DNA of 43,781 nucleotides. It comes from a virus. Taxonomy: Duplodnaviria > Heunggongvirae > Uroviricota > Caudoviricetes. Below are positions 8,328-40,065 of this stretch, in pieces. Numbering within the stretch: position 1 is the first letter of the stretch; every line of letters starts with the position of its first letter. The notes below the pieces were generated by a model that searched no databases, was not told where the DNA came from, and saw only the letters and a program-made list of their open reading frames with translations. Where the stretch lies: IMG/VR virus record IMGVR_UViG_2547132077_000004, positions 1 to 43,781 of that record; one strand, 5' to 3'. Position numbers and translations under genes: made by a program.

Positions 8328-8338
8328 ACATCCCCCTT

Positions 8339-8692
8339 TCAGCGGCGACGGTTAACGGCAGGGGGCACACCCCGCCCCAGCCAGAGATGACAGCTTCCGC
8401 CATCATCCGGCGAAACCCGGTCTACCCAGAAGTTTTCCTCACCGATGGTCAGCGTGTCTCCGCGCCGCAGCTGCCGCACATCATCAGTCCGGACAAACAG
8501 GGACGGGCTGGAGCCTTCAACACGCACGCCAGGTCCGGCATAGCTGATATTTTCAGGGTCATCAAAAACACCACGTATTACTGCGCCGGACTGTTCACCG
8601 GATGTAATGGTGGCTGACGTTCCCATGTACCCGCGTATCGTTTCATCGGCGCGGGCAATGGCAGCATCGAACAGGTTATCGAAATCAGCCAC
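8339..8692 (-). CDS. FII: Head-tail joining protein FII
   Basis: 117 aa, same as lambda gpFII; position. Confidence 0.85.
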   Translation of the reverse strand: MADFDNLFDAAIARADETIRGYMGTSATITSGEQSGAVIRGVFDDPENISYAGPGVRVEGSSPSLFVRTDDVRQLRRGDTLTIGEENFWVDRVSPDDGGSCHLWLGRGVPPAVNRRR

Positions 8693-19860: not shown

Positions 19861-20616
19861 TTAAAACGTATCACGTGACATCATGTCTTTTTCTAAAAAA
19901 AATCTTGATGAATATTGATGGGGAGGAACACCAAAATATCTTCTGAAAACACTTACAAAATATGACGTATTTTCATAACCGCATATCTCAGCAACTTTTC
20001 CAACAGAATATAAATTGTAGCTTAATAACCTTTCCGCCATCACCATTCGCTCTTCAAGAATTAACTTACTAAATGATAAGCCTTCGTGCTTTAATTTTCT
20101 TTTTAACAGACTTTCACTCAGATACAGTCTTGAAGATATATCACAAAGTCTCCATGCTGCAGATATATCCGTGTGAATAATAGCCTTAACTTTACTTCCT
20201 AAACTATTAAGACATCCAAATAAAAAACTTTGCACTATTTTCTCTGAAGATAAGATAGCAAGACATGCAAGTGATATTTGATTTCTAACAAAATCCACAG
20301 TTCTGCCATCACAATTCAAGCATGCAATCAAGTTCTTTAACAATGAAAAATCTTCACATTCCACCATCAAGTATGCCGGATAAAACCTTCTTACAGAAAA
20401 AGGTGAGAGTGTGTTGCTTTTAAAGAAATCATTAACTGTTTTCTCTTCAACATCTACGATCATTACATGATCTATATTTGATGAAAAAAAATCTTTTAAA
20501 TTGTAATCAATGAGAACAGCACTTCCTTTTTTAAACAAAATATCTTCTTTACCAATTCGGGCATCAAACGAGTTCAACACCAAAATGATAGAACATATGT
20601 ATGGCATATTATCCAC
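19861..20616 (-). CDS. AraC/XylS-family transcriptional regulator
   Basis: 251 aa; C-terminal AraC-type double HTH (GKVAEICGYENTSYFVSVFRRYFGVPPHQY); strongly AT-rich. Confidence 0.75.
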   Translation of the reverse strand: MDNMPYICSIILVLNSFDARIGKEDILFKKGSAVLIDYNLKDFFSSNIDHVMIVDVEEKTVNDFFKSNTLSPFSVRRFYPAYLMVECEDFSLLKNLIACLNCDGRTVDFVRNQISLACLAILSSEKIVQSFLFGCLNSLGSKVKAIIHTDISAAWRLCDISSRLYLSESLLKRKLKHEGLSFSKLILEERMVMAERLLSYNLYSVGKVAEICGYENTSYFVSVFRRYFGVPPHQYSSRFFLEKDMMSRDTF

Positions 20617-20956
20617 CTGATATCATTGAGGTTACACCAGGTAAGTATAGGTGGAAAATCAATATTCGCCAGTTCAACAATAAGGAAAATCTCATTGCAT
20701 CACAAGTATAAAATTATGTATTTAACTCACAAAGACAAATTATTAAACCAATCTGTTATATTATATATAGCTGCGTGGAATCATAATATTATATTTTGAC
20801 TGGCATGTTTACCAACTTTAAGTTGCATCTCAATGGTTTCTTCAGCGTAAACAGAGTTTTTATACAAACTGACACTCTGGGTATCATAGTGTAGTTTTTA
20901 CGATTGTAAATATCCTGCATGCAGGAACTCATCCTTTTGGATGATATCGCATACAA

Positions 20957-21916
20957 TTAATTTACCATCAGTCTTAGAGCCAGTTCGTCCGGATAGGGAT
21001 CGAAGTAATTCTGTGTAAGCAAGTAATCATTAGGATACTCACCCAGATAATGCTTCAGCAGAGTCAACGGCGCAAGAAGAGGTAATGTGCCAGAACGATA
21101 GTTAAGTATAACCTCGCTCAACTCTTTACGCTGGCGTGTACTTAAGTAGTTACTAAAATACCCCTGTATATGCATCAGCACATTCGTGTGATTTTTACGT
21201 GATGCAGGTTTTCTGAGAATCGCCATCAGCTTATCACGATACACCTCAAAGTATGATTCAAGGTCCGCCCACTCGTGTATTGCAGCCACAAATGGTCCCA
21301 TATCTTTATAGCCTGCCTGACTATGCGCCAACAACTGAAGCTTATAACGACTATGAAAAGCTAATAACTCTCTTCTTGATAATTTCTCCTTGTAAAGGTG
21401 ATTGAGCTCATGCAAAGCAAAAACTCTTTCAACAAAATTCTCACGAAGCACTGGATCATGTAATCGCCCATCCTCTTCAACCGGTAGCCAGGAAAACTTT
21501 TCCATCAAAGTGCTCGTAAATAGTCCCACTCCATCTTTACGACCTCGATTACCATTTTCATCATAGACACGCACGCGCTCCATACCACAGCTGGGAGATT
21601 TAGCACAAACCACAAACCCCGATACATCCTTTAATTTGTCCATATAAGAACGACTAAACTCTGTCATTCTCTCTGTCACATCCTCATTCTGGTCGTGGCT
21701 GAAACACATCCGTATATTTCCTTGCGTCGAGCGCACAAGACGTAGAGCAGGACGCGGAACTGGCAGCCCTATAGCCATTTCTGGACATACTGGTCTGAAT
21801 GTTACCCATTCCACTAATTTGTCCATTAAAAAGTCAGCTCTTTTGTGACCACCATCAAAACGAACAGCAGAACCGGCCAAACAACCGCTGATTCCAATCA
21901 CAGGTTTTTTTATCAT
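20957..21916 (-). CDS. DUF523/DUF1722 two-domain protein (YbgA-like)
   Basis: 319 aa; N-terminal IGISGCLAG...CPE and C-terminal helical region as in the YbgA family. Family assignment from memory. Confidence 0.55.
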   Translation of the reverse strand: MIKKPVIGISGCLAGSAVRFDGGHKRADFLMDKLVEWVTFRPVCPEMAIGLPVPRPALRLVRSTQGNIRMCFSHDQNEDVTERMTEFSRSYMDKLKDVSGFVVCAKSPSCGMERVRVYDENGNRGRKDGVGLFTSTLMEKFSWLPVEEDGRLHDPVLRENFVERVFALHELNHLYKEKLSRRELLAFHSRYKLQLLAHSQAGYKDMGPFVAAIHEWADLESYFEVYRDKLMAILRKPASRKNHTNVLMHIQGYFSNYLSTRQRKELSEVILNYRSGTLPLLAPLTLLKHYLGEYPNDYLLTQNYFDPYPDELALRLMVN

Positions 21917-22108
21917 ATTCTCCCCCTTGACTAATTCATTAACACATAAACTGTGTAGTGCACGGAATAAATTGCCTTTCTGGCGTCATCACTGACAATT
22001 TTTCTGTTATGGACTATTCCTAATATAGTATGAAAGTTCTTTAAGTGAACGGTCGTAATCATCTATCTTTCATACTTACTCTCAACTATCAAAAGTACAG
22101 GATTTATT

Positions 22109-22633
22109 ATGAAGTTATGGCCTGTGTTGACTGGCATTGCACTCTCTTTCACTCTTATAGCATGTAAGGCCCCGACACCACCTAAAGGTGTGCAGCCGAT
22201 TACAAATTTTGACGCCAACCGCTACCTCGGAAAGTGGTATGAAATAGCTCGCCTCGAGAACCGGTTCGAACGTGGTCTGGAACAGGTCAGCGCTACTTAT
22301 GGAAAACGGAACGACGGAGGGATTCGTGTACTTAACCGTGGATACGATCCAACGAAAAATAAATGGAGCGAGAGCGAAGGTAAAGCATACTTTACTGGAG
22401 ATACTAAAACTGCAGCGTTGAAGGTTTCGTTTTTTGGCCCCTTCTATGGTGGCTATAATGTAATCAAACTGGATGATGAGTATAAGTATGCTCTTGTCAG
22501 TGGTCCGAACAGAGAATATCTATGGATTCTGGCAAGGACCCCAACTATTCCAGATAAAGTAAAAGCAGACTATGTGCGAACCGCTCAAAAGTTGGGATTC
22601 AATGTCAATGAATTATTATGGGTTAAACAATAA
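22109..22633 (+). CDS. blc: Outer-membrane lipocalin (Blc-like lipoprotein)
   Basis: 174 aa; signal peptide with lipobox (LIAC); NFDANRYLGKWYEIARLENRFERGLE and KVSFFGPFYGGYNVI match the bacterial lipocalin Blc signature closely. Confidence 0.85.
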   Translation: MKLWPVLTGIALSFTLIACKAPTPPKGVQPITNFDANRYLGKWYEIARLENRFERGLEQVSATYGKRNDGGIRVLNRGYDPTKNKWSESEGKAYFTGDTKTAALKVSFFGPFYGGYNVIKLDDEYKYALVSGPNREYLWILARTPTIPDKVKADYVRTAQKLGFNVNELLWVKQ

Positions 22634-22787: not shown

Positions 22788-23180
22788 TTATTTCGAACAA
22801 TCAGTATCCATCTCCAATCGGAGATCCAACACCATCAGCATACCCTCCACTACGCCCTCAGCTTTCTGGAGCATCCTGCCAACCCAACAATCAGATCGCC
22901 CATGCTTACGTGCAAGCGCCATAAAAGTCATGCCGCCGACATAATAGTCCACCAATAAATCATGCAAATCGCTGTTGTTCTTTTTCAGACGGGCCATGCA
23001 CCCGCAAATGATCATCGCGTCATCGTCACAACATTGTGGGCGAGATTTTACTTTTGAAGGAATTAATCCCTTAAAACCGGCGGCAATGGACGACCAGGTC
23101 ACATCTTCATGATTATTAGCCGCCCACGCTCCCCAACGCTCAAGAACCATCTGAATATCACGCATCAACTTACTCCACAA
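22788..23180 (-). CDS. Late-gene antiterminator Q (DLP12/phage-82 QuuD type)
   Basis: About 125-130 aa with Cys cluster ([13 protein letters not shown]) typical of short Q proteins; downstream of rusA as in DLP12; start may be the internal MRDIQMV. Confidence 0.7.
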
Positions 23181-23387
23181 AAATCAGACCAGAACGCCAA
23201 TTACAAGCAAAAATCAACAAAACAGTATTAGTTGATTGTTATCTCTGACTTCATACTCCTGCTCCTGTCAGGGTTTTGGCGTAATTCTTCAGTATCCGGT
23301 AATCGGTCAAAACAGAACCGGGGAAACGATATAAGCGCAGGCGCATCCAGCGGTGGCGAAGACGTTCTGCCACATAAAACTCAAACA

Positions 23388-23750
23388 TCATTCATTCCCC
23401 ATTTCGGTGATGGTCAGTTCCAGCCTCCCACCTTTGGTAACTGGCATCTTCACAACGCGGTAATCAACGACCTGAGCATCATCCAGCCAGAAACCTGCTT
23501 TGGTGAGTGCGTCAAAAGCGGCTTTTTGTAGATTATCCAGGTCACGGCGACGGCGATCCGGCATGTGGCACTCAATGCGGATTTTCACAGGCATAGCCAG
23601 ACCGATATCCAGCATTGCGTTTTTAATGATTCGGGCGACGTTATCGCGGTATGCCTGCCCTTCTGCGCTGATGTGCGTGCGCCCTCGATTATGGCGGTAG
23701 TAGCGGTTATTGCTCGGCGGCCAGGGTAGTGTGATGTGGTAAGTATTCAC
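23388..23750 (-). CDS. rusA: Holliday-junction resolvase RusA
   Basis: 120 aa; acidic catalytic residues in RRRRDLDN and FWLDDAQV; 4-nt overlap with the upstream gene. Confidence 0.85.
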
Positions 23751-24037
23751 GCCTTAATTACTCCCTCTTTCAGCCAGATAACCTGCGTTCTCGCCATACC
23801 TTCCAGCGCGCATTCTTTTGCATATGCAGCATCGACAAAATGTGTGCGGCGGTCGATTTCGTCGTGGCAGGCAGAACATGCAATGGTGGCAATCAGGTCT
23901 GGCGGTTTGGTACCGGTGCCGCACAATCCAGTCAGCCGGATATGTGCCAGTACAGACGTTTCAGGGTTGCCATTACATACGCCAGGGATTCTTACCTGGC
24001 ATTCCCGACTACGCGCTGCTTTTCTCAAATCAGCCAT
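23747..24037 (-). CDS. YbcO-like DUF1364 putative nuclease
   Basis: 96 aa from [10 protein letters not shown], preceded by AGGAGG; Cys/His metal-binding pattern (C..C...H...CSAC). Confidence 0.6.
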
Positions 24038-24200
24038 GATTCCTCCTTGCTGCCAGTCGCAACCATTTTTTATCAACCAGGCTGGCGGTATATCCGAGCA
24101 GTGTTGGTATTTCGGAAGGCTTCAGCTCCGGTTTACGCTTACGACGATCTGGTACTCTGTAGATGTGTCCGTTCATGACACGAATAAGCGGTGTAGCCAT
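24030..24200 (-). CDS. ninE: NinE-like small protein
   Basis: Hand-translated 56-aa ORF ([30 protein letters not shown]...[13 protein letters not shown]), below the ORF-track cutoff; start overlaps the upstream stop (TAATG) and stop overlaps the ybcO-like start. Confidence 0.5.
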   Translation of the reverse strand: MATPLIRVMNGHIYRVPDRRKRKPELKPSEIPTLLGYTASLVDKKWLRLAARRNHG

Positions 24201-24655
24201 TACGCCTCCTGCTTGTCGCGGAGCAGCTGGAACTCGCAGCTCTGCGGAATAGTCAGGTGGCAGCCAATATTCACCGCCCAGGCTTCAACCTTACACAGGA
24301 AGACATACATCTCTCCGGTATCAAGATCGGAGGTATGGCGTAACGACTGGATAGTGGTGATATCACCGGTTACGACATCAACCAGGTCTTTGGTTTCATA
24401 ACCGAGATATGTGTGTTTGAGAGCATCTTTTACCCAAGCTGGAGTAGCGAACGTTTTACCCCTGCTGATGAGGTATTCACTGATTTCGCTGTACCACATG
24501 TGGCTGAGTGCATTCTGGGAAAGACTGCGTTTCTCACGCCACGGTTTAAGCACCATGCGAAAGCATTTGCCCTCCTCCAGATAAGGCTGGATCTGCCGAC
24601 CGATAGCGGTGAAGTTACCGCGATGTAATTTGATGCCATCTTGTGGGAGATTCAC
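24200..24655 (-). CDS. NinB/YbcN-like recombination protein
   Basis: 151 aa; position and size match the first gene of the DLP12 nin-like block. Assignment by synteny and length. Confidence 0.5.
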
Positions 24656-24842
24656 GCTTCACCTCCGCAGAGGTCAAACGCTGGATACAATATATCGCAG
24701 GTGCATTTCTGCATCTGTGGAGGGAGAAGAGAGTTTGGATTGTGTGTGCGCATAAACGTCCCCGTTTAGCGCAGAAGTCACCGGAGTTGTTCAGGCTCCG
24801 ATGACATGATTATGGCGAGTTGATTATCGCAAATCAAAGGTT

Positions 24843-25199
24843 TTAATTGTGCTTTATTCCTTCAAGCGTTGCCTTCATACCAACCAAAGAAATGTTTAGC
24901 TCTCCAACTTTCTCAGGGCTATATAATTCAGAATGAAGCCAATATTCTGATTTATCTAAACATCTTTTAGCCAGCTCTCGATCAAAGTCTATGACTTGGG
25001 AAGACGCTTCATACCAAAGCCTATAAAGTTTTTCTTCTTCGTTTGGGTTATTAGGCTCACCACGTTTTAATTTTTCAGTATATAAAATTGTTGAATAAAT
25101 CGCAGGAGTTAATCCAGTGATTGCCCTCTGCCGCAGATCGGATTTGTTTGTTATCCACCCCAACAGACGATCTCCCATCCATGTGATAATTGTATCCAT
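24843..25199 (-). CDS. Hypothetical protein, AT-rich, no recognisable domain
   Basis: 118-aa ORF with a 460-bp ORF-free upstream region; composition differs from the lambda core. Confidence 0.4.
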   Translation of the reverse strand: MDTIITWMGDRLLGWITNKSDLRQRAITGLTPAIYSTILYTEKLKRGEPNNPNEEEKLYRLWYEASSQVIDFDRELAKRCLDKSEYWLHSELYSPEKVGELNISLVGMKATLEGIKHN

Positions 25200-25660
25200 G
25201 CTTTAGCCCTTCTTAGTAAATAGTGTGTAGGGCGACTGAAGGACCGAGTTTATGCTTTTTCGCATTGCTTTCAGTTAGTACACCGGTATCGCACCGGAAA
25301 CAATCCTACGGCAAATTGGTTGTCTGACCTCTCGGTTTTTCGTGCATTAACCGATACCCACTACAGTCTCGGCGAAAGCTGCACACCCCCAGGGTGTACT
25401 GGTAGCACTCGGCACAGCCTAGCACGCCACTTTCTTCTCACTATCCAGTCTAATTTTATCCCCTAGTCAGACACTCAGATGTAGTGCTCCGCAGCGGCAT
25501 GCGGGGGAATACAAAAACTCGGACAAAATTGGGCCCTCCTTTTTGAATCACTCGCGGGGATGTAGTTATTAATACATGGAAAAAGATCTGTTTTCAAATC
25601 CAACATTATATGGTTTCAATACCACGGGGTGGCTATGTGTTTCTCATTGTTAATTGGAAT

Positions 25661-25984
25661 CTACTGTAATCGATCCGAACGTAAATGCGGCAAAACTCGA
25701 CTCCACTTATCATCCTGCCACGGCCGGAATTTTACATGTGCCGTTTCTCTGGCAAGGATTGCCTGTGCCTTATTGAGTATCTGGGGATATTCTTGCTCGA
25801 TAGAAGTGAAGCGACCAGCTTCACGATGCTCCGCAACCTGAAGAAGAGGAGTAACGTTCTGGTAGGTAATTAACATCACATTCCCTGCTCGCCATAACCA
25901 GGCGAGTGTGCAAAGTTCGTTATCAGTGAATTGTTTTGTGATTGGGTATTGTTGAACTGCTAGAACGAGAACGCCAGCATCCAT
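25661..25984 (-). CDS. Hypothetical protein, possibly a gene remnant
   Basis: 107-aa ORF with no recognisable motif beside a stretch with no ORF of 60 aa or more. Confidence 0.3.
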   Translation of the reverse strand: MDAGVLVLAVQQYPITKQFTDNELCTLAWLWRAGNVMLITYQNVTPLLQVAEHREAGRFTSIEQEYPQILNKAQAILARETAHVKFRPWQDDKWSRVLPHLRSDRLQ

Positions 25985-26095
25985 TGGCAGTCTCTATAGT
26001 AAAACCATAGCTCAGGACGCTTCGTTCAGGATAGATAATTTTATTGTACTTACCTAACTTTCTTACTATAGCACGGTTGAAAAAGTGATTATTAC

Positions 26096-27622
26096 TCAAA
26101 AATAAACCTCACCATCAACCATATATTTGAGAGTACTTATCGCCTGCTGGGCGGATATTGTTTTCATTAAAGGATAGTGTTTAAAAACAATGCCATTCAT
26201 AAAATAGATATCACAGGTTTTATTATCTGTATTGATTATGATTTTTTCGAATGTTTTATAGGCAAGTGTACGACATAGCTCTCGCCCATTTTTACTGGTT
26301 AAGTCAATAGCATGAAAATCACCAAGTGAACTCACCGCTTTACTCTTCAAAGTTTTTAATGATACAGAAGCCCTTCGTAATTCCTTATCTAATACTCTGA
26401 TTTTTTCTGCTATAGCGGTAACTTCAGGCGCAACAGATAATGCAGCAATTAAATTATTAATTTTCATCTGGAGCTCAATAATTTTCAACTCTAAAGTTTC
26501 ATTAGCATCTTTCTTGTTTTCAACTGGTTGGATTTTACTACAATTAAAAAGCAACTCATTAATGATATTATAATCAACCAAATCTCTCTTTATTGATGGC
26601 CTGTCACATCGATGCAGTCTTCTCATCGGACAAACATAATAGCCATACAAACTTCCAGATACCGCATGAACAATCATGGTATTACCACAAGCCTCGCACT
26701 TCATAACTGTTCGAAGTAGATTTATCAACATAGGATTTTTGCTACTATTGCTAATACCAAAAGGTGCCAACCGAATTTCCTGTACAGCGTAAAACAAATC
26801 ATCTGATATGACTCTGGGATAATAGCCAGCGATTTCACTTATTCCTTTACCTCTTGCACGATATGAAGGTACGCATATACCTATCAGAGCTTTATTCGCT
26901 AATAATTTTTCAATTACAGAAGGTCCCCATGCACTTTCTTTTCCTGAGAAATTCTTTACAGCATGATCATTTAAATACTTGGCTATTGCATTCAATGAGC
27001 GCCTTTCCATCCTGAGTTTAAAAATTAGCTCAATAGTTTTCACCCTGTCGGGGTCTGGAACAAAAGCCGTTCTTTTGTCATCTAAGGAGAGCCATCTCGG
27101 ACAAGACGCCGTCATAATCGTACCTGATTCCAGTGCATCCTGCCGTTTTTTCTTCCATGATAATTTAACCCGACTTGACTTTATCTCGCTTTCTTCATTT
27201 GCCCTTTGTGCTATAAGTATGGCTTTTATTAATGAATATGGCTCATTCAAAGAGTCAATATTATAGACTGTATTGTCGCAAAGAGTTATAACATCAATAC
27301 CGTGATTCAAAATCAATTTCAGACGTTCAATCGCTTCACCGACTTTTTCTCTTGAAAGTCTGTCCAGACTTTCAACTAACAATGTAGTTCCTGGCAATAT
27401 ATAACCATGCTCTATAGCATCTAAAAATTCCGAAAAAGCTCCTGATTGTGCATGCTTTCCTTTGAATGCACTTAATCCTAAATCTTCATATGTTATGGTA
27501 TCAAGATAATAATCACTATTTACCTTTAACCATTCAGCAATAAGTCTTCTCTGTCGGTTTAATGAGTCGCCAGACATCTGACCTGGTGATGAAAATCGCA
27601 TATATGCTATGGCTTTTTTCAT
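26096..27622 (-). CDS. Large serine recombinase (YbcK-like)
   Basis: 508 aa; N-terminal resolvase catalytic domain (IAYMRFSSPGQ, nucleophile Ser), recombinase domain, Cys-rich zinc-ribbon (CEACGN...C..C) and C-terminal coiled coil; AT-rich. Confidence 0.8.
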   Translation of the reverse strand: MKKAIAYMRFSSPGQMSGDSLNRQRRLIAEWLKVNSDYYLDTITYEDLGLSAFKGKHAQSGAFSEFLDAIEHGYILPGTTLLVESLDRLSREKVGEAIERLKLILNHGIDVITLCDNTVYNIDSLNEPYSLIKAILIAQRANEESEIKSSRVKLSWKKKRQDALESGTIMTASCPRWLSLDDKRTAFVPDPDRVKTIELIFKLRMERRSLNAIAKYLNDHAVKNFSGKESAWGPSVIEKLLANKALIGICVPSYRARGKGISEIAGYYPRVISDDLFYAVQEIRLAPFGISNSSKNPMLINLLRTVMKCEACGNTMIVHAVSGSLYGYYVCPMRRLHRCDRPSIKRDLVDYNIINELLFNCSKIQPVENKKDANETLELKIIELQMKINNLIAALSVAPEVTAIAEKIRVLDKELRRASVSLKTLKSKAVSSLGDFHAIDLTSKNGRELCRTLAYKTFEKIIINTDNKTCDIYFMNGIVFKHYPLMKTISAQQAISTLKYMVDGEVYF

Positions 27623-27805
27623 GGTGACACCTGCTAACGTATGCTTTTATAAACCTTAGTGGTGGGATATAATTTTTGTTTAATTTTTATTTAAAAAGAC
27701 AATTAAGGTCACATTATCTTGAATATACAACAATAATCGTATTGCAATTTTCTTACGCCATAATCTTGAAAGCACAAAAGAATACATAAAAAAATAAAGA
27801 CATTA

Positions 27806-27847
27806 ACAAAAAGCATAAAACGAGGCTCATATAAATATAAGAGCCTC
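27806..27847 (-). terminator. Rho-independent terminator downstream of emrE
   Basis: Inverted repeat GAGGCTC(27822-27828)/GAGCCTC(27841-27847); on the minus strand followed by a T-rich tract. Confidence 0.5.
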
Positions 27848-27878
27848 CATATTTTAGTCGTTTAGAAACAAATTATTT

Positions 27879-28211
27879 TTAATGTGGTGTGCTTCGTGAC
27901 AATAAATTAATAACCAACACACCGGCACAAATCAACATCATGCCTATAATGGCTGGCAGGTCCAGCCGTTGGCCGAAAAGTCCCCATGACAGTAAGCTAA
28001 TCAGGACAATACCGACTCCTGACCAGATAGCATAAGCAATCCCTGTAGGAATATAAGCCAGCGTCTGAGCTAATAACCAGAATGATGCACAATAACAAAT
28101 AATTGTACCAACAGATGGCCATAACCGTGTAAAACCTTCTGAAAACTTCATTAAGGTTGTACCAATGACCTCTGCAAGTATTGCACCACCAAGATAAATA
28201 TAAGGGTTCAT
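27879..28211 (-). CDS. emrE: Small multidrug resistance (SMR) efflux protein EmrE
   Basis: 110 aa from MNPYIYLGGAILAEVIGTTLMKFSEGF, with the conserved membrane-embedded Glu; near-identical to E. coli EmrE as I recall it. The ORF-track start at 28265 is an upstream extension. Confidence 0.9.
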   Translation of the reverse strand: MNPYIYLGGAILAEVIGTTLMKFSEGFTRLWPSVGTIICYCASFWLLAQTLAYIPTGIAYAIWSGVGIVLISLLSWGLFGQRLDLPAIIGMMLICAGVLVINLLSRSTPH

Positions 28212-28278
28212 AGAATATTCTTTCCTGTTCAAACTGGAGAGAATTGTACTACAGTTTGAACTCAACTCACCTGTTTCA

Positions 28279-28581
28279 TCATTGTGTACCCATTGATGTT
28301 CTTTTATATACCCTCAATACCCGTTTCATCGCGGCACTCTGGCGACACTCCTTAAAAATCAGATTCGTGCTCACCTTTCCTTCCCGTTCTTCTCTGGTAG
28401 CAAACCGGTAATACACCGTTCGCCAGACCTTACCTTCGATAGCCAGAAGACCTGCCCGTGCCATTTTAGCCGCAGCCTGATTTATGCTGGTTACCGTTGC
28501 GCCTGTTACCGCGGCAACGTCCTGCGCACAGAATTTCTTATGAGTCCCCAGGTAATGAATAATTGCCTCTTTGCCCGTCAT
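28279..28581 (-). CDS. ren: Ren protein
   Basis: 100 aa beginning MTGKEAIIHYLGTH, close to lambda Ren; directly downstream of P. Confidence 0.8.
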   Translation of the reverse strand: MTGKEAIIHYLGTHKKFCAQDVAAVTGATVTSINQAAAKMARAGLLAIEGKVWRTVYYRFATREEREGKVSTNLIFKECRQSAAMKRVLRVYKRTSMGTQ

Positions 28582-29279
28582 ACCCTTGCTCCTTTCAGCC
28601 CAAACTTAGCTTTGATTTCTGCGATCTTCGCCAGAGCCTGTGCACGATTTAGAGGTCTACCGCCCATGACAGGAAGTTGTTTTACTGGTTCAGGTATAGC
28701 CTCACCACGGTTAATTCGTGCGGTCATACAGGACAGTTCATCGGCAGCCTTGCGCCGTAATTCCGCGTCAGTCAACGCATTGGCCCGCATGTTCTGATAC
28801 AGGTTGGTAACCAGCCAGTAGTGCGCGTTTGATTTCCACGGATAAGACTCTGCATCCGGATACAGCCCGCGCTTCCGGCAATACTCGTAAACCATATCAA
28901 CCAGCTCGCTGGCGTTTGGCAGCCCGGCGGTAACGGATGCTTCTTCCCGGCACCAGGCGACAAACTGCCCGGGTGATGGCAGGAATGGTCGATTCTGCCG
29001 ACGGGCTACGCGCATTCCAGCGTTAACCTGTTCCATTGTGGTGATCCCGTTTTCCCGAAAAGCCAGCACCCACTGGCGGCGGATTTCGTTCAGTTCATTC
29101 TGGTCACGGTTAGCCAGGCTCGCCGGGAAAGTTGCCAGTAACTGGCTGAACACACCGTTGATGATCTGCGCTACCTGCTGTACCTGCGGCTTTTCGTCGT
29201 ACTGTTCCGACATGTTGTTGGCGATCCGACGCATCTGCTCACGGTCAAAGTTAACCATCTGTGCGGCGATGTTTTTCAT
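28578..29279 (-). CDS. P: Replication protein P (DnaB helicase loader)
   Basis: 233 aa, near-identical to lambda P as I recall it (MKNIAAQMVNFDREQMRRIANNM...). Confidence 0.9.
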   Translation of the reverse strand: MKNIAAQMVNFDREQMRRIANNMSEQYDEKPQVQQVAQIINGVFSQLLATFPASLANRDQNELNEIRRQWVLAFRENGITTMEQVNAGMRVARRQNRPFLPSPGQFVAWCREEASVTAGLPNASELVDMVYEYCRKRGLYPDAESYPWKSNAHYWLVTNLYQNMRANALTDAELRRKAADELSCMTARINRGEAIPEPVKQLPVMGGRPLNRAQALAKIAEIKAKFGLKGARV

Positions 29280-30295
29280 AAATCCACCCCGTAAATCCAG
29301 TCAGTGTTTGTCAGGTCGAGTTTTGGTTTGCTGGCTATCATGCCTGCCTGTTGCTTGTTACGGTTGATTTCGAGTTGGGTCCACTTGTCGCGGAGTTTGG
29401 CCGGACTTAGCACGTTACCGGACCAGAAGTTGTCCTGGCATGCCCAGCGGAAAAGCACGCACATGTCGCGGTGGTTACGTCCGTCACGTTCACGCATCAG
29501 GCGGATATCGTTAGCCCACCCTGCAAAATTCGGTTTTCTGGCTGATGGTGCGATGGTCTTCACCATGTCAAACATCCACTCTGCGGCGGTCAGGTCTTCT
29601 GCTGTCCCCCACTTGCTGCCGCTCTGAATTGCAGCATCTGGTTTCACCACAGGAAGATCGTTTTCTGGTTGGTCAGAGGATTCGCCAGAATTCTCGGACG
29701 AAAAAGGTTTTATATTGTCTTTTGTTAGTTTGTCTTTTGTGTTTACCTGATTCGGGTAAACGCCTTTACCTGATTTGGGTAAACTTTTCTTACCTGATTC
29801 AGGTAAATTTACCTCTTTCAGGTAAACTTTATTTTTCTTACCTGATTCGGGTAATGTTGACCATTCACTGACCACATTATTAATACCGATATTCCGCCCG
29901 CTCTGAATCAAAATCCCACGCTTTACTAGAACACTTTTTGCAGCAGAACACTTGTGCGGTAATATCCCGGTCAATCCGGACAGTTGCTCGTTGCTCACCC
30001 AATCCAGTTTTTTATTAAAGCCATATGTTTTGCGCATGACAGCCAGGAAGACCAGAAGCTGGTGCTGTGTTAATCCGGCCAGCATCACAGCTTCCAGCAA
30101 CTCATTTGCAATGCGCGTATAACCATCATCGAGATCTGCCACGCGCGGCTCCTTTTGTGCCGCATCCGGCACTGGAAAATTGAATATCTCAGCAGTGTTT
30201 GCCATAATTCCTCCCGCAATGAGTGTGTTACGATTTGCACCTGAAAGTCGGTTCTGTTCCAGCAGACCGGCTTTCGCCATTTCTGAACCTGTCAT
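29276..30295 (-). CDS. O: Replication initiator O with ori iterons inside the coding sequence
   Basis: 339 aa; central LPESGKK repeats encoded by the iterons; C-terminal domain lambda-O-like; gene order cro/cII-position/O/P. Confidence 0.8.
   Translation of the reverse strand: MTGSEMAKAGLLEQNRLSGANRNTLIAGGIMANTAEIFNFPVPDAAQKEPRVADLDDGYTRIANELLEAVMLAGLTQHQLLVFLAVMRKTYGFNKKLDWVSNEQLSGLTGILPHKCSAAKSVLVKRGILIQSGRNIGINNVVSEWSTLPESGKKNKVYLKEVNLPESGKKSLPKSGKGVYPNQVNTKDKLTKDNIKPFSSENSGESSDQPENDLPVVKPDAAIQSGSKWGTAEDLTAAEWMFDMVKTIAPSARKPNFAGWANDIRLMRERDGRNHRDMCVLFRWACQDNFWSGNVLSPAKLRDKWTQLEINRNKQQAGMIASKPKLDLTNTDWIYGVDL
29744..29854. repeat. Replication origin iterons (4-5 copies of TTACCTGATTCGGGTAA-like 17-mers) with an adjacent AT-rich tract (29701-29743)
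   Basis: Direct repeats at about 29744, 29766, 29790, 29808 (variant) and 29838 inside O, the lambda ori architecture. Confidence 0.75.
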
Positions 30296-30831
30296 ATCGC
30301 CCCCAGCATGGTAGTAACCATCGCCATCAATGGACCAGCCAGATCTGGGTCCACACGAAACATCGATACAATACCTTCACTAATTTCCTTCAGTTTCTGG
30401 TGGCGTGGTGCGTTGAGAATGACAGCCTGTTTTGCCTCACTGAGTTCCTTTTCCATTTCAGCCAACCTGGCCATGAAGCTATCCTGCTCAACCAGGTAAC
30501 CGCGATATTCCAGCGGTAGTACCGCCAGAATTGCCGGGGTCAGTTCACGCACGTTATTTCGGTATTTTTCAGAATCGAATTTGTTATCGAGGAAGCGGAA
30601 CAGCTTCTGGCGTGCACGGCTGACATCATCAGGGAAATCGATGGTGCCGCCGCCCTGCTCCCGATACTCATTCACAATGAGTGTGGCAACGACATCCTGA
30701 TTATCTACAGCCGACCAGGCGCGGACGGCATCACGGATTTTTTCGTGGCCTGGCACCTGTTTTGTTTGAGAACGATTTATCACCGCAGTCGGGCTAAATC
30801 CGCTAGTCTGTTGGTATGGAAGTGGTTGCAT
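30292..30831 (-). CDS. Early protein at the cII position, unknown family (not lambda cII)
   Basis: 179 aa between cro-like and O; far longer than the 97-aa lambda cII and no resemblance to it. Confidence 0.4.
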   Translation of the reverse strand: MQPLPYQQTSGFSPTAVINRSQTKQVPGHEKIRDAVRAWSAVDNQDVVATLIVNEYREQGGGTIDFPDDVSRARQKLFRFLDNKFDSEKYRNNVRELTPAILAVLPLEYRGYLVEQDSFMARLAEMEKELSEAKQAVILNAPRHQKLKEISEGIVSMFRVDPDLAGPLMAMVTTMLGAI

Positions 30832-34719: not shown

Positions 34720-35964
34720 ATGAACGAGGCAGCAATAATTATTGTCCCAACAGACATCAGCAAGAAAATTCGCGAAATAGAAGAGTCCTACAACAGATAT
34801 ATAAATGAATTTCGCATCCCTAATGATCATAAGATAATCGTGAATTATTCAGCAGGAAAAGACAGCACTGCCACACTCGCAGTGGCGCACACATTATTCG
34901 GCAAACAGGTACATGCTGTTATGGCAGACACGGATAATGAGCATAATCTAACTGTCGAATTCGCCAGGAGCATTCATGAGCAGATCGGTTGTAGCCCTGT
35001 GCAGGTTGTGAAGCGGATTTACACTGAAGAAGATTTTGCCAAACGACGAATTTATCTGCAAAAAAACTGGTCTAAACGACAGATGATCCGCATGGGAGCA
35101 TACCGTGGCATAGTCATGCCTTCCCTCGCACGTTCTGACACCAAATTCGGGCAAGCCTGGAAGCGCACAGCAGAACGCTGGGGAATTGAGTTCGAAACTG
35201 CTCTTGATGCTGCGCTTTCCGTTATGCACCCATCCGGTAATAGCTTTTTGGATTGCTCCCTTCTGCATGGCAAGTTCCCTATGCTGCGCGACCGATTCTG
35301 TACAGACGAACTGAAAATTCAGATAGCTTTCGACGCAGCCATAAAGCCGCTCCTTGATGCTGGCGATGTTATCGTACAATGGTCTGGTGTTCGCGCGGAT
35401 GAGTCCTCTAAGCGCGCTGGATATGAGAGGTTTTCCCGCGATATGCGCGACGCCGATTTTCTCTACAACTTCCTGCCGCTCCACAAATGGACGGCTGAGG
35501 ACGTATTCGCAGTTCACAAATATTTCGGAATTAAGCCAAATCCACTTTATATGCAAGGTGCGTCTCGTGTTGGCTGCATGAATTGCGTGCTATGCAACAA
35601 AGAGGAAATTGCAGAGACGGCTGCGCGCTGGCCAGAGCACATCAAAAAGCACAAACAATGGGAGTTGAAGGTACGCCTTGCTAGTAGATGGGTACACTGG
35701 ATGAGCGTAGGAGAGATAAGCCAACGCTGGATGAAACAGTTCAATCTGCCACTTGGTCGAAATATTCAACTTTTTGGGCTAAAACCTGATGTGCAACACA
35801 TCGACTGGTCAGGATTTTATGGTCCTCGTGGAGATCTTAATTCTCCGGGTGTTTATGAAGTCGTAGAGTGGGCAAAAACAGGGCGCGGTGGCAAGGTCTA
35901 CGATCTTGTAAAAGCAAGTCTCGATATAGAGGTTTGCTCTTCACGCTACGGTCTGTGCGAATAA
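34720..35964 (+). CDS. PAPS-reductase-like (PP-loop ATP-pyrophosphatase superfamily) protein with Cys-rich C-terminal extension
   Basis: 414 aa; PP-loop motif (IIVNYSAGKDSTATLAVAH) near the N-terminus; C-terminal CMNCVLC cluster; same strand as the early-left operon. Confidence 0.65.
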   Translation: MNEAAIIIVPTDISKKIREIEESYNRYINEFRIPNDHKIIVNYSAGKDSTATLAVAHTLFGKQVHAVMADTDNEHNLTVEFARSIHEQIGCSPVQVVKRIYTEEDFAKRRIYLQKNWSKRQMIRMGAYRGIVMPSLARSDTKFGQAWKRTAERWGIEFETALDAALSVMHPSGNSFLDCSLLHGKFPMLRDRFCTDELKIQIAFDAAIKPLLDAGDVIVQWSGVRADESSKRAGYERFSRDMRDADFLYNFLPLHKWTAEDVFAVHKYFGIKPNPLYMQGASRVGCMNCVLCNKEEIAETAARWPEHIKKHKQWELKVRLASRWVHWMSVGEISQRWMKQFNLPLGRNIQLFGLKPDVQHIDWSGFYGPRGDLNSPGVYEVVEWAKTGRGGKVYDLVKASLDIEVCSSRYGLCE

Positions 35965-35975
35965 TACTAAGTTAT

Positions 35976-36578
35976 TTACTCATTATTTTTTGATAATACA
36001 ACTTTCTGCCAAGTTATCTGGTTACGTTGAAAACTATCTTTATTTATTGACGTAACTCGCAATGTTTTCAGACCTAACTGAGACGCTAACTCAAGAAGTT
36101 CCTCAGTATTAACAACGTTAATGTTTCTATCTGGTTCGGGAGGTCCTAAGCGCAATGTAATTATCATTCTCCCATTCAATGTTAAAAGATCAGTTAGCGT
36201 CTCTAGTGAGATTTTTTGCTCTTTTTTTGAAAGATGCATCCATACAGCACTGACTAAAATAAGGTCGAACTTTAGATTCATTGCTTTAACACTATGAAGA
36301 AAAGGCAATGAATCATCTAACCATATAATATGGTTAGATTTATAATATGAAGATGCCAAATTTCGCATCTTTTCACTTGGTTCAACAGCTATTACTTTAT
36401 AACCTAATTCATCTAACGCAGCAGCATCACGGCCGGAACCTGAACCGACATCCAAAGAGACACCCTTAGATTGTAAAATAAACTCTTCAACATCCTGAAA
36501 GATAGAGTAAAAATCAAGTGATATATAATCGGCAAATAAGCGATCAGCATTATTGTCATAAAACTTCCACGAAGTCAC
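35976..36578 (-). CDS. Class I SAM-dependent methyltransferase (small, TehB-like architecture)
   Basis: 200 aa; motif I (LDVGSGSGRDAAALDELGYKVIAVE) and motif post-I/II (FDLILVSAVWMHL); AT-rich; start overlaps the upstream gene by 4 nt. Confidence 0.7.
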   Translation of the reverse strand: MTSWKFYDNNADRLFADYISLDFYSIFQDVEEFILQSKGVSLDVGSGSGRDAAALDELGYKVIAVEPSEKMRNLASSYYKSNHIIWLDDSLPFLHSVKAMNLKFDLILVSAVWMHLSKKEQKISLETLTDLLTLNGRMIITLRLGPPEPDRNINVVNTEELLELASQLGLKTLRVTSINKDSFQRNQITWQKVVLSKNNE

Positions 36579-37207
36579 TTTGATAATCCTGATTTTGCTT
36601 CGATAAATAATCCTGACTCAATATTTTTAATTGTTGCTTTGTATGTATTATGTGAAATGTCTTTTGAAAACAAGTTTGGATGATATACCCCAGCAATATT
36701 AACAAAGAAGCAAACAATAAGCATTACTGCCCAGCACGACACTACTATGTAACCAGTTTCCTTATTATCATAGCTAGAGGGCAATTTAAATCCAGCGTCT
36801 CTAGTAATTTCATTTAAAATATAGTTTTTTGAAGGATCTTCAATGTTTTTTTGTAGTGCTATTTTCGAACCAATTAAAGACCTTAAGCGATAAAGTGTAA
36901 TCATTGTTGTGAAATCAAACAATGCTAACACTGCAAAGATAATCCATAGGGAACTTTCATTTGCCAGTGTTGTTGCATACCACAACCCACCATTGACAGC
37001 AATTACGAAACTAGGGATTTGCCACATGAGCTGATTTAAAGCCCGCATGTGTTGTCCTGCTTCAAGATAAGTAATCTCCTGCAGCTTCTGATACCAACGG
37101 ATTGCCTCAATTTTTAGATTTTCGTTAATCTGTTGCTGTTGCTGATTTACCATGTAATCCCTGCTCAACGAACTGAAACTTTTAATGATGCTATCACAAC
37201 TTATCAA
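36575..37207 (-). CDS. Predicted integral membrane protein (three hydrophobic helices), unknown family
   Basis: 210 aa; soluble N-terminal about 60 aa (poly-Gln QQQQQ) then helices IPSFVIAVNGGLWYATTL, LWIIFAVLALFDFTTMITLY, GYIVVSCWAVMLIVCFFVNIAGVY; translationally coupled to the methyltransferase. Confidence 0.55.
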   Translation of the reverse strand: MISCDSIIKSFSSLSRDYMVNQQQQQINENLKIEAIRWYQKLQEITYLEAGQHMRALNQLMWQIPSFVIAVNGGLWYATTLANESSLWIIFAVLALFDFTTMITLYRLRSLIGSKIALQKNIEDPSKNYILNEITRDAGFKLPSSYDNKETGYIVVSCWAVMLIVCFFVNIAGVYHPNLFSKDISHNTYKATIKNIESGLFIEAKSGLSK

Positions 37208-38066: not shown

Positions 38067-38482
38067 GGCCTGCCAGCTTCTCAAGATATCCAGACCTACA
38101 GCAATCATGTCAATCCAATAAATGGAGACTCCAAGTGGAAGAAGAAATCTTCACTCGTGAAGAGGCTGCGTCGTATCTGAAGGTAGACAAAGGCACTATC
38201 ACGCAGTGGATACGAAGTGGACGACTTCAAGCCGCAAAGATAAATCCAGATAAACCTAAAAGCCCATATCGCATTTGCAAGTCAGACTGCATTGCGGCGC
38301 TTAAGTCTGTGAGACACAATAGCGCGGTGAATGCGGTTGATGTGCAGGAGGTTAAAGCATGTCAATCAAACTGCGCGGTGGCACATGGCACTGCGATTTC
38401 GTCGCGCCAGATGGATCAAGAGTTAGACGCTCTCTTGAAACATCGGACAAGAGGCAAGCGCAAGAACTTCACGATCGTCTGA
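38063..38482 (+). CDS. xis: Excisionase/AlpA-like HTH protein (start uncertain; overlaps int)
   Basis: HTH segment FTREEAASYLKVDKGTITQWIRSGRL immediately upstream of int; the ORF overlaps int by 124 nt in another frame, so the true start, or an alternative start codon, is unresolved. Confidence 0.5.
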   Translation: MRPASFSRYPDLQQSCQSNKWRLQVEEEIFTREEAASYLKVDKGTITQWIRSGRLQAAKINPDKPKSPYRICKSDCIAALKSVRHNSAVNAVDVQEVKACQSNCAVAHGTAISSRQMDQELDALLKHRTRGKRKNFTIV

Positions 38483-39519
38483 AAGCAGAAGCGTGGAGAG
38501 TAAAAAATCTCGGTGAATCACCGAAAAAGCTATTCAAGGAAGCCTGCATACGGTGGCTGCGAGAGAAAGCGGATAAGAAGTCCATTGATGATGACAAGAG
38601 CATTATATCGTTCTGGATGTTGCACTTCAGAGAAACCATTCTCTCTGACATAACAACAGAAAAAATAATGGAGGCGGTAGACGGGATGGAAAACCGCCGC
38701 CATCGCCTGAACTGGGAGATGAGCCGGGATAGGTGTTTGCGGCTTGGCAAGCCAGTGCCGGAGTATAAACCAAAGCTGGCAAGCAAAGGAACGAAGACGC
38801 GGCATCTGGCAATACTTCGCGCTATTCTCAATATGGCTGTTGAATGGGGATGGCTTGACAGGGCGCCCAAAATATCAACACCACGCGTTAAGAATGGACG
38901 AATCAGATGGCTTACAGAGGAGGAATCGAAGCGCCTGTTTGCAGAAATTGCTCCTCATTTCTTCCCTGTGGTCATGTTTGCAATCACGACAGGCCTTCGT
39001 CGTTCCAACGTTACAGACCTTGAGTGGTCACAGGTCGATCTGGATAAGAAAATGGCATGGATGCACCCTGATGAAACAAAAGCTGGCAATGCGATCGGAG
39101 TTCCTCTTAACGAAACCGCATGCCAGATATTAAGAAAACAGCAGGGGCTCCATAAGAGATGGGTATTTGTCCACACCAAACCTGCCTACCGAAGCGACGG
39201 AACAAAAACAGCAGCGGTAAGGAAGATGAGAACCGACAGCAACAAGGCATGGAAGGGAGCGTTAAAGCGGGCAGGCATTAGCAACTTCCGCTTCCATGAC
39301 CTGAGGCATACCTGGGCAAGCTGGCTGGTTCAGTCCGGTGTCTCTCTTCTTGCACTTAAAGAGATGGGAGGATGGGAAACTCTCGAAATGGTTCAAAGAT
39401 ACGCCCACCTTTCAGCCGGGCATCTCACCGAGCACGCGAGCAAAATCGATGCGATTATAAGTCGCAATGGCACAAATACGGCACAAGAGGAGAACGTAGT
39501 TTACTTAAATGCGAGGTAA
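38359..39519 (+). CDS. int: Tyrosine integrase
   Basis: 386 aa; C-terminal catalytic signature (HDLRHTWASWLVQSGVSLLALKEMGGWETLEMVQRYAHL) with R..HxxR..Y; ends 15 bp from the att core. Confidence 0.9.
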   Translation: MSIKLRGGTWHCDFVAPDGSRVRRSLETSDKRQAQELHDRLKAEAWRVKNLGESPKKLFKEACIRWLREKADKKSIDDDKSIISFWMLHFRETILSDITTEKIMEAVDGMENRRHRLNWEMSRDRCLRLGKPVPEYKPKLASKGTKTRHLAILRAILNMAVEWGWLDRAPKISTPRVKNGRIRWLTEEESKRLFAEIAPHFFPVVMFAITTGLRRSNVTDLEWSQVDLDKKMAWMHPDETKAGNAIGVPLNETACQILRKQQGLHKRWVFVHTKPAYRSDGTKTAAVRKMRTDSNKAWKGALKRAGISNFRFHDLRHTWASWLVQSGVSLLALKEMGGWETLEMVQRYAHLSAGHLTEHASKIDAIISRNGTNTAQEENVVYLNAR

Positions 39520-39579: not shown

Positions 39580-40065
39580 TATAAGAATCCGCTTCTAATT
39601 CAAAGCATTACCCCATCAACACTGCGCTCACACGTCCCACCACATCAAAACATGTAAAGCCTTGCAAGTCATTGCGAGGCCTTATGTGTCTCAGTTTTGT
39701 CCCACCTTGTATTACGACTTGCATAGCCAATGAAGATAAATGTGACAACAAACGGCGCAGCAGTCTTCTTTTCCTTCATACTTTCCCCACCCAGCATGCA
39801 TACCTTCTACCATAACTGTAGTGAATGTGTTATGAGCGAGATGCGGACATTGGCAGCCTCAACAACATGACTGGCATTGAGGCGTATTAATCAGTGGGGA
39901 GCAGGTCACGCCATCTATAATGGAAAACGTGCTGGTGACCTGCCGATACTCAGTCTCAGGCAGCGAATACAATTACACATAGTTCGAAAAATATGTTAGC
40001 GCAACCAGTGATATCCGCGGCTTTCTCTGGAAAAATGTGTTAGTTTCTCTAAGCCATGTCCATTG

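Follow-up and report, generated by a model that had tools for sequence, protein, structure and literature searches.

The window, the 43,781-nucleotide stretch of viral DNA analysed here, contains part of a prophage in which the genes emrE and ybcK are both located between ren and the nin genes. The replication module consists of O (29276..30295, minus strand), P (28578..29279, minus strand) and, as its last gene, ren (28279..28581, minus strand), all taken from the ORF list; the matching genomes and phages annotate the product of the latter as 'protein ren' or 'Ren-like exclusion protein'. The emrE unit starts at the ren stop codon. The emrE gene itself (27879..28211, minus strand) encodes a 110-aa SMR proton/drug antiporter, and its frame, with the start at 28211, is enclosed in a 128-aa ORF (27879..28265, minus strand). 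It is followed, all on the minus strand, by a terminator-like hairpin just 3' of the gene (27808..27847), by a 256-bp AT-rich leader that holds a small ORF, ylcJ (27623..27878), and by ybcK, a 508-aa ORF encoding a large serine recombinase (26096..27622). The segment 26096-28211 is bounded exactly by the stop codon of ybcK and the start codon of emrE. The ORF list and Pfam thus confirm the arrangement described in an earlier note on this DNA, with emrE right after ren and then a full-length large serine recombinase.

Beyond ybcK lie a 107-aa C-terminal remnant of a Rha/antirepressor-like protein (25661..25984, minus strand; P22AR_C domain, PF10548, 1.1e-15) and, as variable cargo between ybcK and ybcN, a 118-aa ORF (24843..25199, minus strand) with no Pfam or NCBIfam match. 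The nin gene ybcN/ninB (24200..24655, minus strand) and Q (22788..23180, minus strand) complete this part of the ORF list. The G+C content of the emrE-ybcK block is 31-40%, AT-rich compared with about 50-55% in the phage genes on either side. At the prophage end there is a tyrosine integrase gene (38359..39519, plus strand; PF00589, 9e-35), whose presence had been recognised before, and phage homology stops about 220-330 bp past it (window 39743-39850). The tyrosine integrase accounts for the integration of the prophage. Replication, lysis, head and tail genes are retained; the window ends inside the tail region, with most of J and the tail fibres missing from it, and so the apparently complete genome of the earlier note is not established from the window.

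The EmrE protein matches Multi_Drug_Res (PF00893, 3e-35) over residues 3-94 and is identical to the crystallised K-12 EmrE (PDB 3b5d) at 108 of its 110 positions, the differences being at positions 79 and 100. Glu14, the essential membrane-embedded residue of SMR transporters, which are four-helix membrane proteins of about 110 aa, is present. Near-identity to the characterised K-12 protein suggests that the EmrE of the window would export quaternary cations or ethidium. The hairpin behind the gene, GGAGGCUC...GAGCCUC followed by a U-run, folds with -16.3 kcal/mol (z = -2.7 versus shuffles); it is not among the matches of a consensus terminator scan, and sequences resembling promoters occur around emrE no more often than by chance. 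Morons are autonomous prophage accessory genes that have their own promoter and terminator and whose expression in the lysogen does not depend on the phage programme. EmrE is listed as a moron of Perceval, a prophage of strain LF82, and is induced in DMEM medium (PMC9928086). In K-12, ybcK is silenced by a Rho/NusG-dependent terminator in its untranslated leader (PMC4150792) and is therefore not moron-like there. Across this leader the window and K-12 share about 97% identity, and ylcJ is frameshifted in the identical copy of E. coli FDAARGOS_497.

Architecture and conservation of YbcK

The domains of YbcK follow one another in the order catalytic domain, recombinase domain, zinc ribbon, coiled coil and C-terminal beta domain, with Pfam matches to Resolvase (PF00239, 7.7e-19), Recombinase (PF07508, 2.2e-14) and Zn_ribbon_recom (PF13408, 3.8e-08). 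A single-sequence search of solved structures with YbcK found nothing and a family profile was required; the profile match to SprA/YokA of SPbeta (2.5e-19) has an alignment that spans residues 141-472. The AlphaFold model (pLDDT 81) has helices at residues 370-395 and 401-430, and its Foldseek matches include SprA (5e-19) as well as PhiC31, Bxb1 and 4kis. Pfam, profile and predicted fold together bear out the proposal of a full-length large serine recombinase with zinc ribbon and coiled coil.

Residues R9, S11, Q15, D87, R88, R91, R140 and E144 of YbcK are invariant in 26 relatives. Inactivating changes at the catalytic serine had been named in advance as a finding that would count against a functional recombinase; on alignment, Ser11 is intact and invariant. 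The zinc cysteines C309, C312, C331 and C339 are near-invariant, being kept in at least 90% of sequences. The gene is found in 1,424 E. coli genomes and is full-length in 1,398 of them, with occasional deletions and IS insertions, and its dN/dS is 0.06-0.16 at dS up to 0.17. Judged from its sequence, YbcK is a full-length, catalytically intact integrase-type large serine recombinase under strong purifying selection; it is not a decaying remnant, because of this low dN/dS, the invariant catalytic and near-invariant zinc residues and the predicted serine-integrase fold.

The integrases SprA of SPbeta, PhiC31 Int, Bxb1 Int and A118/LI Int share with YbcK the domain order, the catalytic Ser/Arg set, the overall fold and a zinc ribbon that bears an inserted coiled coil, although the identity of YbcK to them is only 13-19%. 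The genes for these integrases adjoin attP, mark prophage ends and have partner directionality factors, whereas ybcK is situated in the middle of a prophage with a tyrosine integrase of its own, and has no recognisable att site. No report of recombination by YbcK between att sites was found in the literature searched.

Spread of the block in E. coli and its phages

The 3-kb region of the block is 100% identical to E. coli FDAARGOS_497, 97% identical to DLP12 of K-12 and 95-98.5% identical to 12 deposited phage genomes. The parallel with the defective prophage DLP12 that had been drawn earlier is correct: positions 26057-28492 of the window are 96.9% identical to it, with the same emrE-ylcJ-ybcK genes in the same order and orientation, the same leader, and the same flanking ren and ybcN-ninE-ybcO-rusA-ylcG-Q genes. 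DLP12 differs in having ybcL-ybcM after ybcK, where the window has the rha remnant and the 118-aa ORF, in the IS3 within its ren, and in the loss of most early and structural genes. The carriers among the complete phage genomes deposited, which include Turner (PP925837), Perceval (OV696612, genus Bievrevirus), 4A7, Lambda_4C10, 1W, 3W, D2 and PhiR phages such as PhiR34_1, have P-ren-emrE-ybcK at 95-98.5% identity, while their immunity and integrase modules partly differ from those of the window. Turner, which was isolated from surface water, has the same downstream cargo as the window, whereas an alpha/beta hydrolase follows ybcK in Perceval and ybcL-ybcM in PhiR34_1.

About a quarter of the complete E. 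coli genomes (~1,397 of 5,426, counted where at least 80% of the 3-kb region is present) carry the block. The gene order P-ren-emrE-ybcK-(variable cargo)-ybcN is kept in fixed orientation in 80 of 80 IMG/VR loci, a few of which are without some markers owing to a contig end or a sub-threshold match; the cargo after YbcK in these loci is a RhaC remnant with or without orf118, YbcL-YbcM or an alpha/beta hydrolase. The ybcK of E. coli is always internal and contiguous with emrE (1,397 versus 1,398 genomes, 80 of 80 viral loci and 7 annotated contexts), and no second location for it is found in the 1,424 genomes. EmrE, the textbook SMR pump of E. coli, is prophage-borne wherever we looked. The emrE-ylcJ-ybcK segment is a standard accessory block of DLP12-type lambdoid E. 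coli phages, already known and already annotated.

The suggestion of the earlier note that a packageable phage may transduce emrE stands as to the existence of infectious carriers but not as to its novelty, since such carriers are on record in the 12 deposited phage genomes and in Perceval, for which virion production has been demonstrated (PMC9928086). Most E. coli already possess emrE, whether within a DLP12-type prophage or within the prophage remnant found at fliE-yedK, so that transduction by a phage would seldom add a new trait, and transfer of this weak efflux determinant would change little.

The boundaries around the block are mosaic. Homology to DLP12, to Perceval and to the fliE island all stops at 24838, giving a sharp boundary at 24838/24839, and homology with the emrE-only island stops at 28288. 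The junctions 3' of ybcK vary by lineage, and at one of them a rha gene is truncated; the full-length 249-aa Rha is found in phage PhiR5_1, without emrE-ybcK. The 107-aa Rha-like remnant of the window marks a non-site-specific junction downstream of ybcK. Lambdoid phages are known to gain DLP12 DNA by recombination (PMC3945230). Capture of the block by PhiR34_1 from the DLP12 of its MG1655 host was considered and set aside; the two sequences have 35 mismatches over 6.4 kb, of which 6 fall in the stretch between ybcK and ren inclusive, and direct capture is not shown.

Relatives outside E. coli and the role of YbcK

Relatives of YbcK with 40-60% identity occur as gene-sized cassettes, with no fixed ends, in other prophages, plasmids and islands; the family numbers 240 genome loci and 234 viral loci. 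The DNA shared between contexts comprises the large serine recombinase gene with 65-425 bp upstream and 0-56 bp downstream. Near-identical genes are found in unrelated contexts, such as a Pantoea lambdoid prophage and the Pluralibacter chromosome; further sets of contexts are plasmid, chromosome and prophage, and an Atlantibacter tail end and a nin region. A search of E. coli for closer relatives of the Atlantibacter allele returned ybcK itself as the only match.

The reading that we favour, at a probability of about 0.7, is that emrE and ybcK form an accessory block of DLP12-type lambdoid phages in the rightward early operon, which is spread by mosaicism and whose YbcK acts during phage development. 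The block would pass from one lambdoid genome to another through the usual mosaic recombination, both homologous and illegitimate, and not by YbcK-mediated insertion. By extrapolation from the K-12 terminator data, YbcK would be made only when N-antiterminated pR transcription crosses its leader, at infection or induction, and would then act as a site-specific recombinase on putative DNA sites. Across the Enterobacterales, ybcK-type genes may be gene-sized cassettes that have been captured repeatedly at hot spots for accessory genes in prophages, plasmids and islands. As a counterpoint to the cassette view, the strong purifying selection and the fixed position in E. coli argue for a benefit to phage or host, which a passive cassette does not explain. 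YbcK is the constant neighbour of EmrE, intact and strongly conserved; identification of its att sites could show why the lambdoid phages retain it and could add a recombinase for genome engineering.

A broader and speculative proposal, which we regard as possible with the odds well against it, treats the YbcK clade as a separate line of serine integrases within the Enterobacterales that has become an independent cassette the size of one gene, which either moves by itself with relaxed ends or is under selection for some function in the phage cycle. It would be carried on unrelated prophages (in the nin region and at the tail-fibre end), plasmids and islands, and expressed only during phage development. 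If this is true, the clade could serve in site-specific exchange between lambdoid genomes or act on a chromosomal target, for example the yedK-fliE hot spot.

It is unlikely that the ybcK unit (gene and short leader, ~1.7-2.1 kb) is a minimal mobile element that inserted itself between emrE and ybcL in an ancestor of DLP12 and now rides in the phage. Such an element could explain why DLP12 has exactly 2,083 bp (ylcJ, ybcK and 310 bp), starting just past the emrE stop codon, that the emrE-ybcL-ybcM remnant at fliE-yedK does not have, why the near-identical genes in unrelated Enterobacterales contexts have only the gene and a short leader in common, and why the plasmid copies are solitary, between metabolic genes. 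However, identity between the DLP12 and fliE-island copies is no more than about 90% and the region of crossover is ill-defined, so that a deletion fits equally well and the 2,083-bp difference was rejected as evidence of insertion. The Pantoea pair with and without the gene was rejected likewise, since there the recombinase gene substitutes for a methylase-RusA segment of a phage that is otherwise 94-96% identical, which is cassette replacement instead of insertion. The ends of the shared segments also differ between contexts, and the solitary plasmid copies, for which no clean empty sites were found, lie at junctions of unrelated segments. End-to-end alignments with shuffles reached p ~0.03-0.05 at single loci (24-nt end motifs, Pantoea L120 and L024); with 1 of 52 tests at p<=0.03, terminal repeats overall are taken as chance, and no conserved non-coding motifs adjoin the gene in seven family members. 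With variable ends, chance-level repeats and one location in E. coli, the unit does not have the properties of an IS-like element. TnpX and TndX (of Tn4451 and Tn5397) and CcrAB (of SCCmec), which are large serine recombinases that move non-phage DNA, are the model for a self-mobile unit; their elements have defined ends, circular intermediates and cargo, whereas neither fixed ends nor circles are apparent for the ybcK unit.

The earlier note had raised a second integration specificity and an inversion switch as possible roles of YbcK, and neither is supported in E. coli. No target repeats above chance flank the block, as judged from shuffled alignments and from a repeat search over 23000-30500, in which the only repeats were the ori iterons of O and pairs at chance level. 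We consider it improbable that YbcK directs integration at an alternative attB when the primary site is occupied. The full serine-integrase architecture including the coiled coil, the inferred expression at infection and the homologues at prophage extremes beside ssrA (Atlantibacter), lepA (Erwinia) and yedK (Citrobacter pasteurii and Enterobacteriaceae G50) are consistent with such a role, but these homologues are candidate integrases only, read within 10-kb flanks with the far prophage ends beyond. In every E. coli context examined ybcK lies inside the prophage, contiguous with emrE and phage DNA and away from any prophage-chromosome junction; none of the prophages seen is permuted at ybcK, and no attP-like dyad adjoins the gene. 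In E. coli, YbcK is not the integrase of the prophage.

A role of YbcK as an exclusion or defence factor, or as another moron that benefits the lysogen, and not as a recombinase for the phage genome, is very improbable. Genes of the family are indeed found in the nin region and at the tail-fibre end, the two classic hot spots for morons, and those on Pantoea and Enterobacter plasmids neighbour NACHT and RelA/SpoT genes. A single report describes ybcK-dependent tolerance to the solvent sabinene (PMC7181518), although this effect is without mechanism and could be indirect. PADLOC gives no match for YbcK, EmrE, Ren or the two downstream ORFs, the gene is silenced by Rho in the lysogen-like state of K-12, and the full set of catalytic residues is retained, which would not be needed for DNA binding alone.

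That ybcK is an inactive leftover of an inserted element, or encodes an invertase for an adjacent segment, is hardly credible: the AT-rich, foreign composition, the truncated neighbour gene and the sporadic disruptions of ybcK would suit a relic, but there are no inverted repeats bracketing a segment as in Hin/Gin/Pin-type systems, the neighbours keep a single orientation in all 80 loci, and the gene is under purifying selection over dS up to 0.17 and intact in 1,398 of 1,424 genomes.

Distribution of the emrE-ybcK block

The emrE-ylcJ-ybcK block between ren and the nin genes is already documented. E. coli FDAARGOS_497 has the 3-kb region in its chromosome at 100% identity, and of 5,426 complete genomes of the species about 1,397 contain at least 80% of it. 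Counted separately, the ybcK gene is found in 1,424 genomes (1,398 full-length), so that in E. coli it is essentially always joined to emrE. From just past the ybcK stop into ren (26057-28492), the window is 96.9% identical to DLP12, the defective prophage of E. coli K-12, whose genes bear the names emrE, ylcJ and ybcK. The parallel drawn in the earlier note is thus borne out, the block being a member of the DLP12 module and not just a lookalike. Twelve deposited phage genomes also carry it at 95-98.5% identity, among them the surface-water phage Turner, Perceval, 4A7, Lambda_4C10, 1W, 3W, D2 and several PhiR phages. For Perceval, which resides as a prophage in strain LF82, particle production has been shown, and the EmrE exporter is listed among its morons, induced in DMEM (PMC9928086). 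The interpretation in the earlier note, that a packageable phage may transduce an efflux determinant, is partly right, but its main point is on record. The gene order P-Ren-EmrE-YbcK-[cargo]-YbcN is kept in all 80 viral-contig loci. The cargo comes in three kinds: the window's kind is a rha remnant, which may or may not be joined by a 118-aa ORF, DLP12 has ybcL-ybcM, and Perceval has an alpha/beta hydrolase.

The genes noted earlier are confirmed at the positions given for them. The ORF list and Pfam place the 508-aa ybcK gene at 26096..27622 (minus strand; Resolvase, Recombinase and Zn_ribbon_recom) and the 110-aa emrE frame at 27879..28211 (Multi_Drug_Res), after ren (28279..28581), which directly follows P and O. 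Downstream lie ybcN/ninB (24200..24655) and Q (22788..23180), and a phage tyrosine integrase is found by Pfam at 38359..39519. The block is AT-rich relative to its phage neighbours (31-40% G+C), with a hairpin and U-run 3' of emrE (27808-27847, z = -2.7); promoter-like matches in the region do not exceed chance. EmrE is identical to the crystallised K-12 protein at 108 of 110 residues, keeps Glu14 and has the sequence features of the SMR family. Deposited phage genomes match the window's late genes at 95-97% identity, and its structural ORFs appear undamaged; the window ends inside the tail region.

Many E. coli genomes have an emrE of about 92% identity without ybcK, in a small island, emrE-ybcL-ybcM-porin (nmpC-like), between fliE and yedK; the part of the window that matches the E. 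coli MS10711 locus (L003) is 27871-28288. The island derives by deletion from a DLP12-like prophage, and E. coli emrE sits in a prophage or prophage remnant in all contexts examined. Since most strains already possess a copy, the practical weight of phage-borne efflux transduction is limited. A YbcK homologue directly follows yedK, at a prophage end, in Citrobacter pasteurii (locus L124) and Enterobacteriaceae G50 (locus L122), and together with the fliE island this makes the yedK-fliE gap look like a shared hot spot.

Junctions of the block and possible mobility of ybcK

A C-terminal third of a rha/antirepressor gene lies just downstream of ybcK, and the same gene is full-length in a phage without the block. 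Downstream of ybcK the position at which homology ends varies by lineage, while the far side of the cargo has a single sharp boundary (24838/24839). The cut rha gene and the variable ends reject arrival by a clean site-specific event, and the junction pattern, as read from sequence comparison, appears to be the usual lambdoid mosaicism. Uptake of DLP12 DNA by lambdoid phages via recombination has been observed experimentally (PMC3945230).

Relatives of YbcK, of the same length and 40-61% identical, form one clade in Enterobacterales and occupy four kinds of location. In further lambdoid prophages, those of Pantoea dispersa, Atlantibacter sp. RC6 and an unassigned contig, the gene is in the nin region. 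The other locations are the tail-fibre end of prophages of unrelated types, adjoining host genes (Atlantibacter at ssrA, Erwinia at lepA, Ewingella, Yersinia, and C. pasteurii and G50 at yedK); plasmids of Pantoea and Duffyella, where the gene stands alone among unrelated chromosomal-type genes, mostly metabolic or regulatory; and a mobilisable island-like region of Citrobacter koseri.

Such a distribution is described as that of a cassette repeatedly captured at accessory hot spots. The rival explanation, that ybcK with short flanks is a minimal self-mobile element, draws on close copies in different contexts, which share only the gene with 65-425 bp upstream and 0-56 bp downstream, and on the fact that DLP12 and the fliE island differ by exactly 2,083 bp. 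However, the ends of the shared segment vary from context to context, and terminal repeats and flank motifs of the family, like the recombinase target repeats sought around the gene at the suggestion of the earlier note, are at chance level. The plasmid copies sit where unrelated segments meet, with no empty site found, and in a Pantoea phage pair with flanks 94-96% identical the recombinase replaces a methylase-RusA segment and is not an addition. For these reasons the captured cassette is preferred and self-mobility is kept as a rival of low probability. That the clade represents a free-standing cassette of the serine-integrase type, either mobile in its own right or serving the phage cycle, is unlikely, with a probability of roughly one in five.

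Tail-end homologues often have two small genes beside them (~80 aa and ~110-130 aa, the latter with a weak Peptidase_S24/UmuD-like match) in loci L006 (7092-7684), L019 (8212-8845), L015 (11207-11772) and L118/L119 (about 8250-8590); in the G50 locus a full umuDC adjoins the homologue. The G50 homologue is out of frame (9997-10020) at a run of A8 that immediately follows the start codon (ATGAAAAAAAAG), where the window has A6; this is due either to an error in sequencing or to a tract prone to slippage. In Candidatus Pantoea alvi (L130, 9055-12859) the homologue is inverted and flanked by two copies of P, a full-length P with a 112-aa ORF on one side and a C-terminal fragment of the second P on the other. 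The recombinase gene there looks as if it marks the point where two replication modules of lambdoid type meet.

Integrity and role of YbcK

By all available tests ybcK appears to be a live gene. The dN/dS is 0.06-0.16 among seven alleles, whose synonymous sites differ by up to 17%. Across 26 aligned relatives, R9, S11, Q15, D87, R88, R91, R140 and E144 are invariant and the four zinc-ribbon cysteines almost so; the inactivated catalytic serine raised as a possible refutation is thus absent. A single-sequence search of solved structures gave no match. A family profile matches SPbeta SprA/YokA (2.5e-19) over the recombinase, zinc and coiled-coil regions, and also the PhiC31 and TP901-1 integrases in their catalytic domains. 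The AlphaFold model (pLDDT 81) matches full-length SprA, PhiC31, Bxb1 and A118-type integrases, and YbcK shows all the sequence and fold features of a large serine recombinase.

Several roles are excluded for E. coli, and none of the rest is established. Unlike SprA, PhiC31 and Bxb1 integrases, YbcK resides inside a prophage having its own tyrosine integrase and has no recognisable att site. In E. coli ybcK is always internal and the prophage end adjoins the tyrosine integrase, so that YbcK lacks the positional feature of prophage integrases; the second integration specificity suggested earlier finds no support in E. coli. An inversion switch fares no better, with no inverted repeats found bracketing a segment near ybcK and a single orientation of its neighbours in 80 loci. 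No PADLOC defence model matches YbcK. The only phenotype found in the literature is a reported, unexplained effect of ybcK on sabinene tolerance (PMC7181518). In K-12 a Rho/NusG-dependent terminator in the untranslated leader silences the gene (PMC4150792). Since the leader in the window is about 97% identical, YbcK would be made when N-modified pR transcription passes the leader, i.e. during infection or induction.

Other features of the window

Just past the integrase end lie genes for a GmrSD-type (DUF262/DUF1524) modification-dependent restriction enzyme (41587-43476, plus strand) and a 311-aa protein with no family match (40066-41001, minus strand). Elsewhere in E. coli, as in strain PT62 (locus L273), the same pair has a different tyrosine integrase on one side and an invertase fragment with Mu-like tail genes on the other, and the lambdoid prophage seems to border directly on a second element. 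The mcrA gene has a comparable setting in e14. Between Q and the lysis genes (19861-22633), an interval holding nmpC in DLP12 and stx in Stx phages, the window carries an AraC-family regulator resembling YdeO/GadX (19861-20616), a YbgA-family protein (20957-21916) and the lipocalin Blc (22109-22633). Beside exo/bet, a segment (34720-37207) missing from the otherwise identical FDAARGOS_497 prophage encodes a 414-aa PAPS-reductase-domain protein with weak DndC-like matches, a 200-aa methyltransferase-like protein and a 210-aa opposite-strand protein without assigned function; it may be a DNA-modification or anti-restriction module. The O gene holds five 20-bp repeats (TTTACCTGATTCGGGTAAAC and variants, 29738-29856), as expected for origin iterons of the lambda type. 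At the cII position, the gene (30292-30831, minus strand) differs from lambda cII in having a YdaT_toxin domain (8.5e-30), which is common in this phage group.
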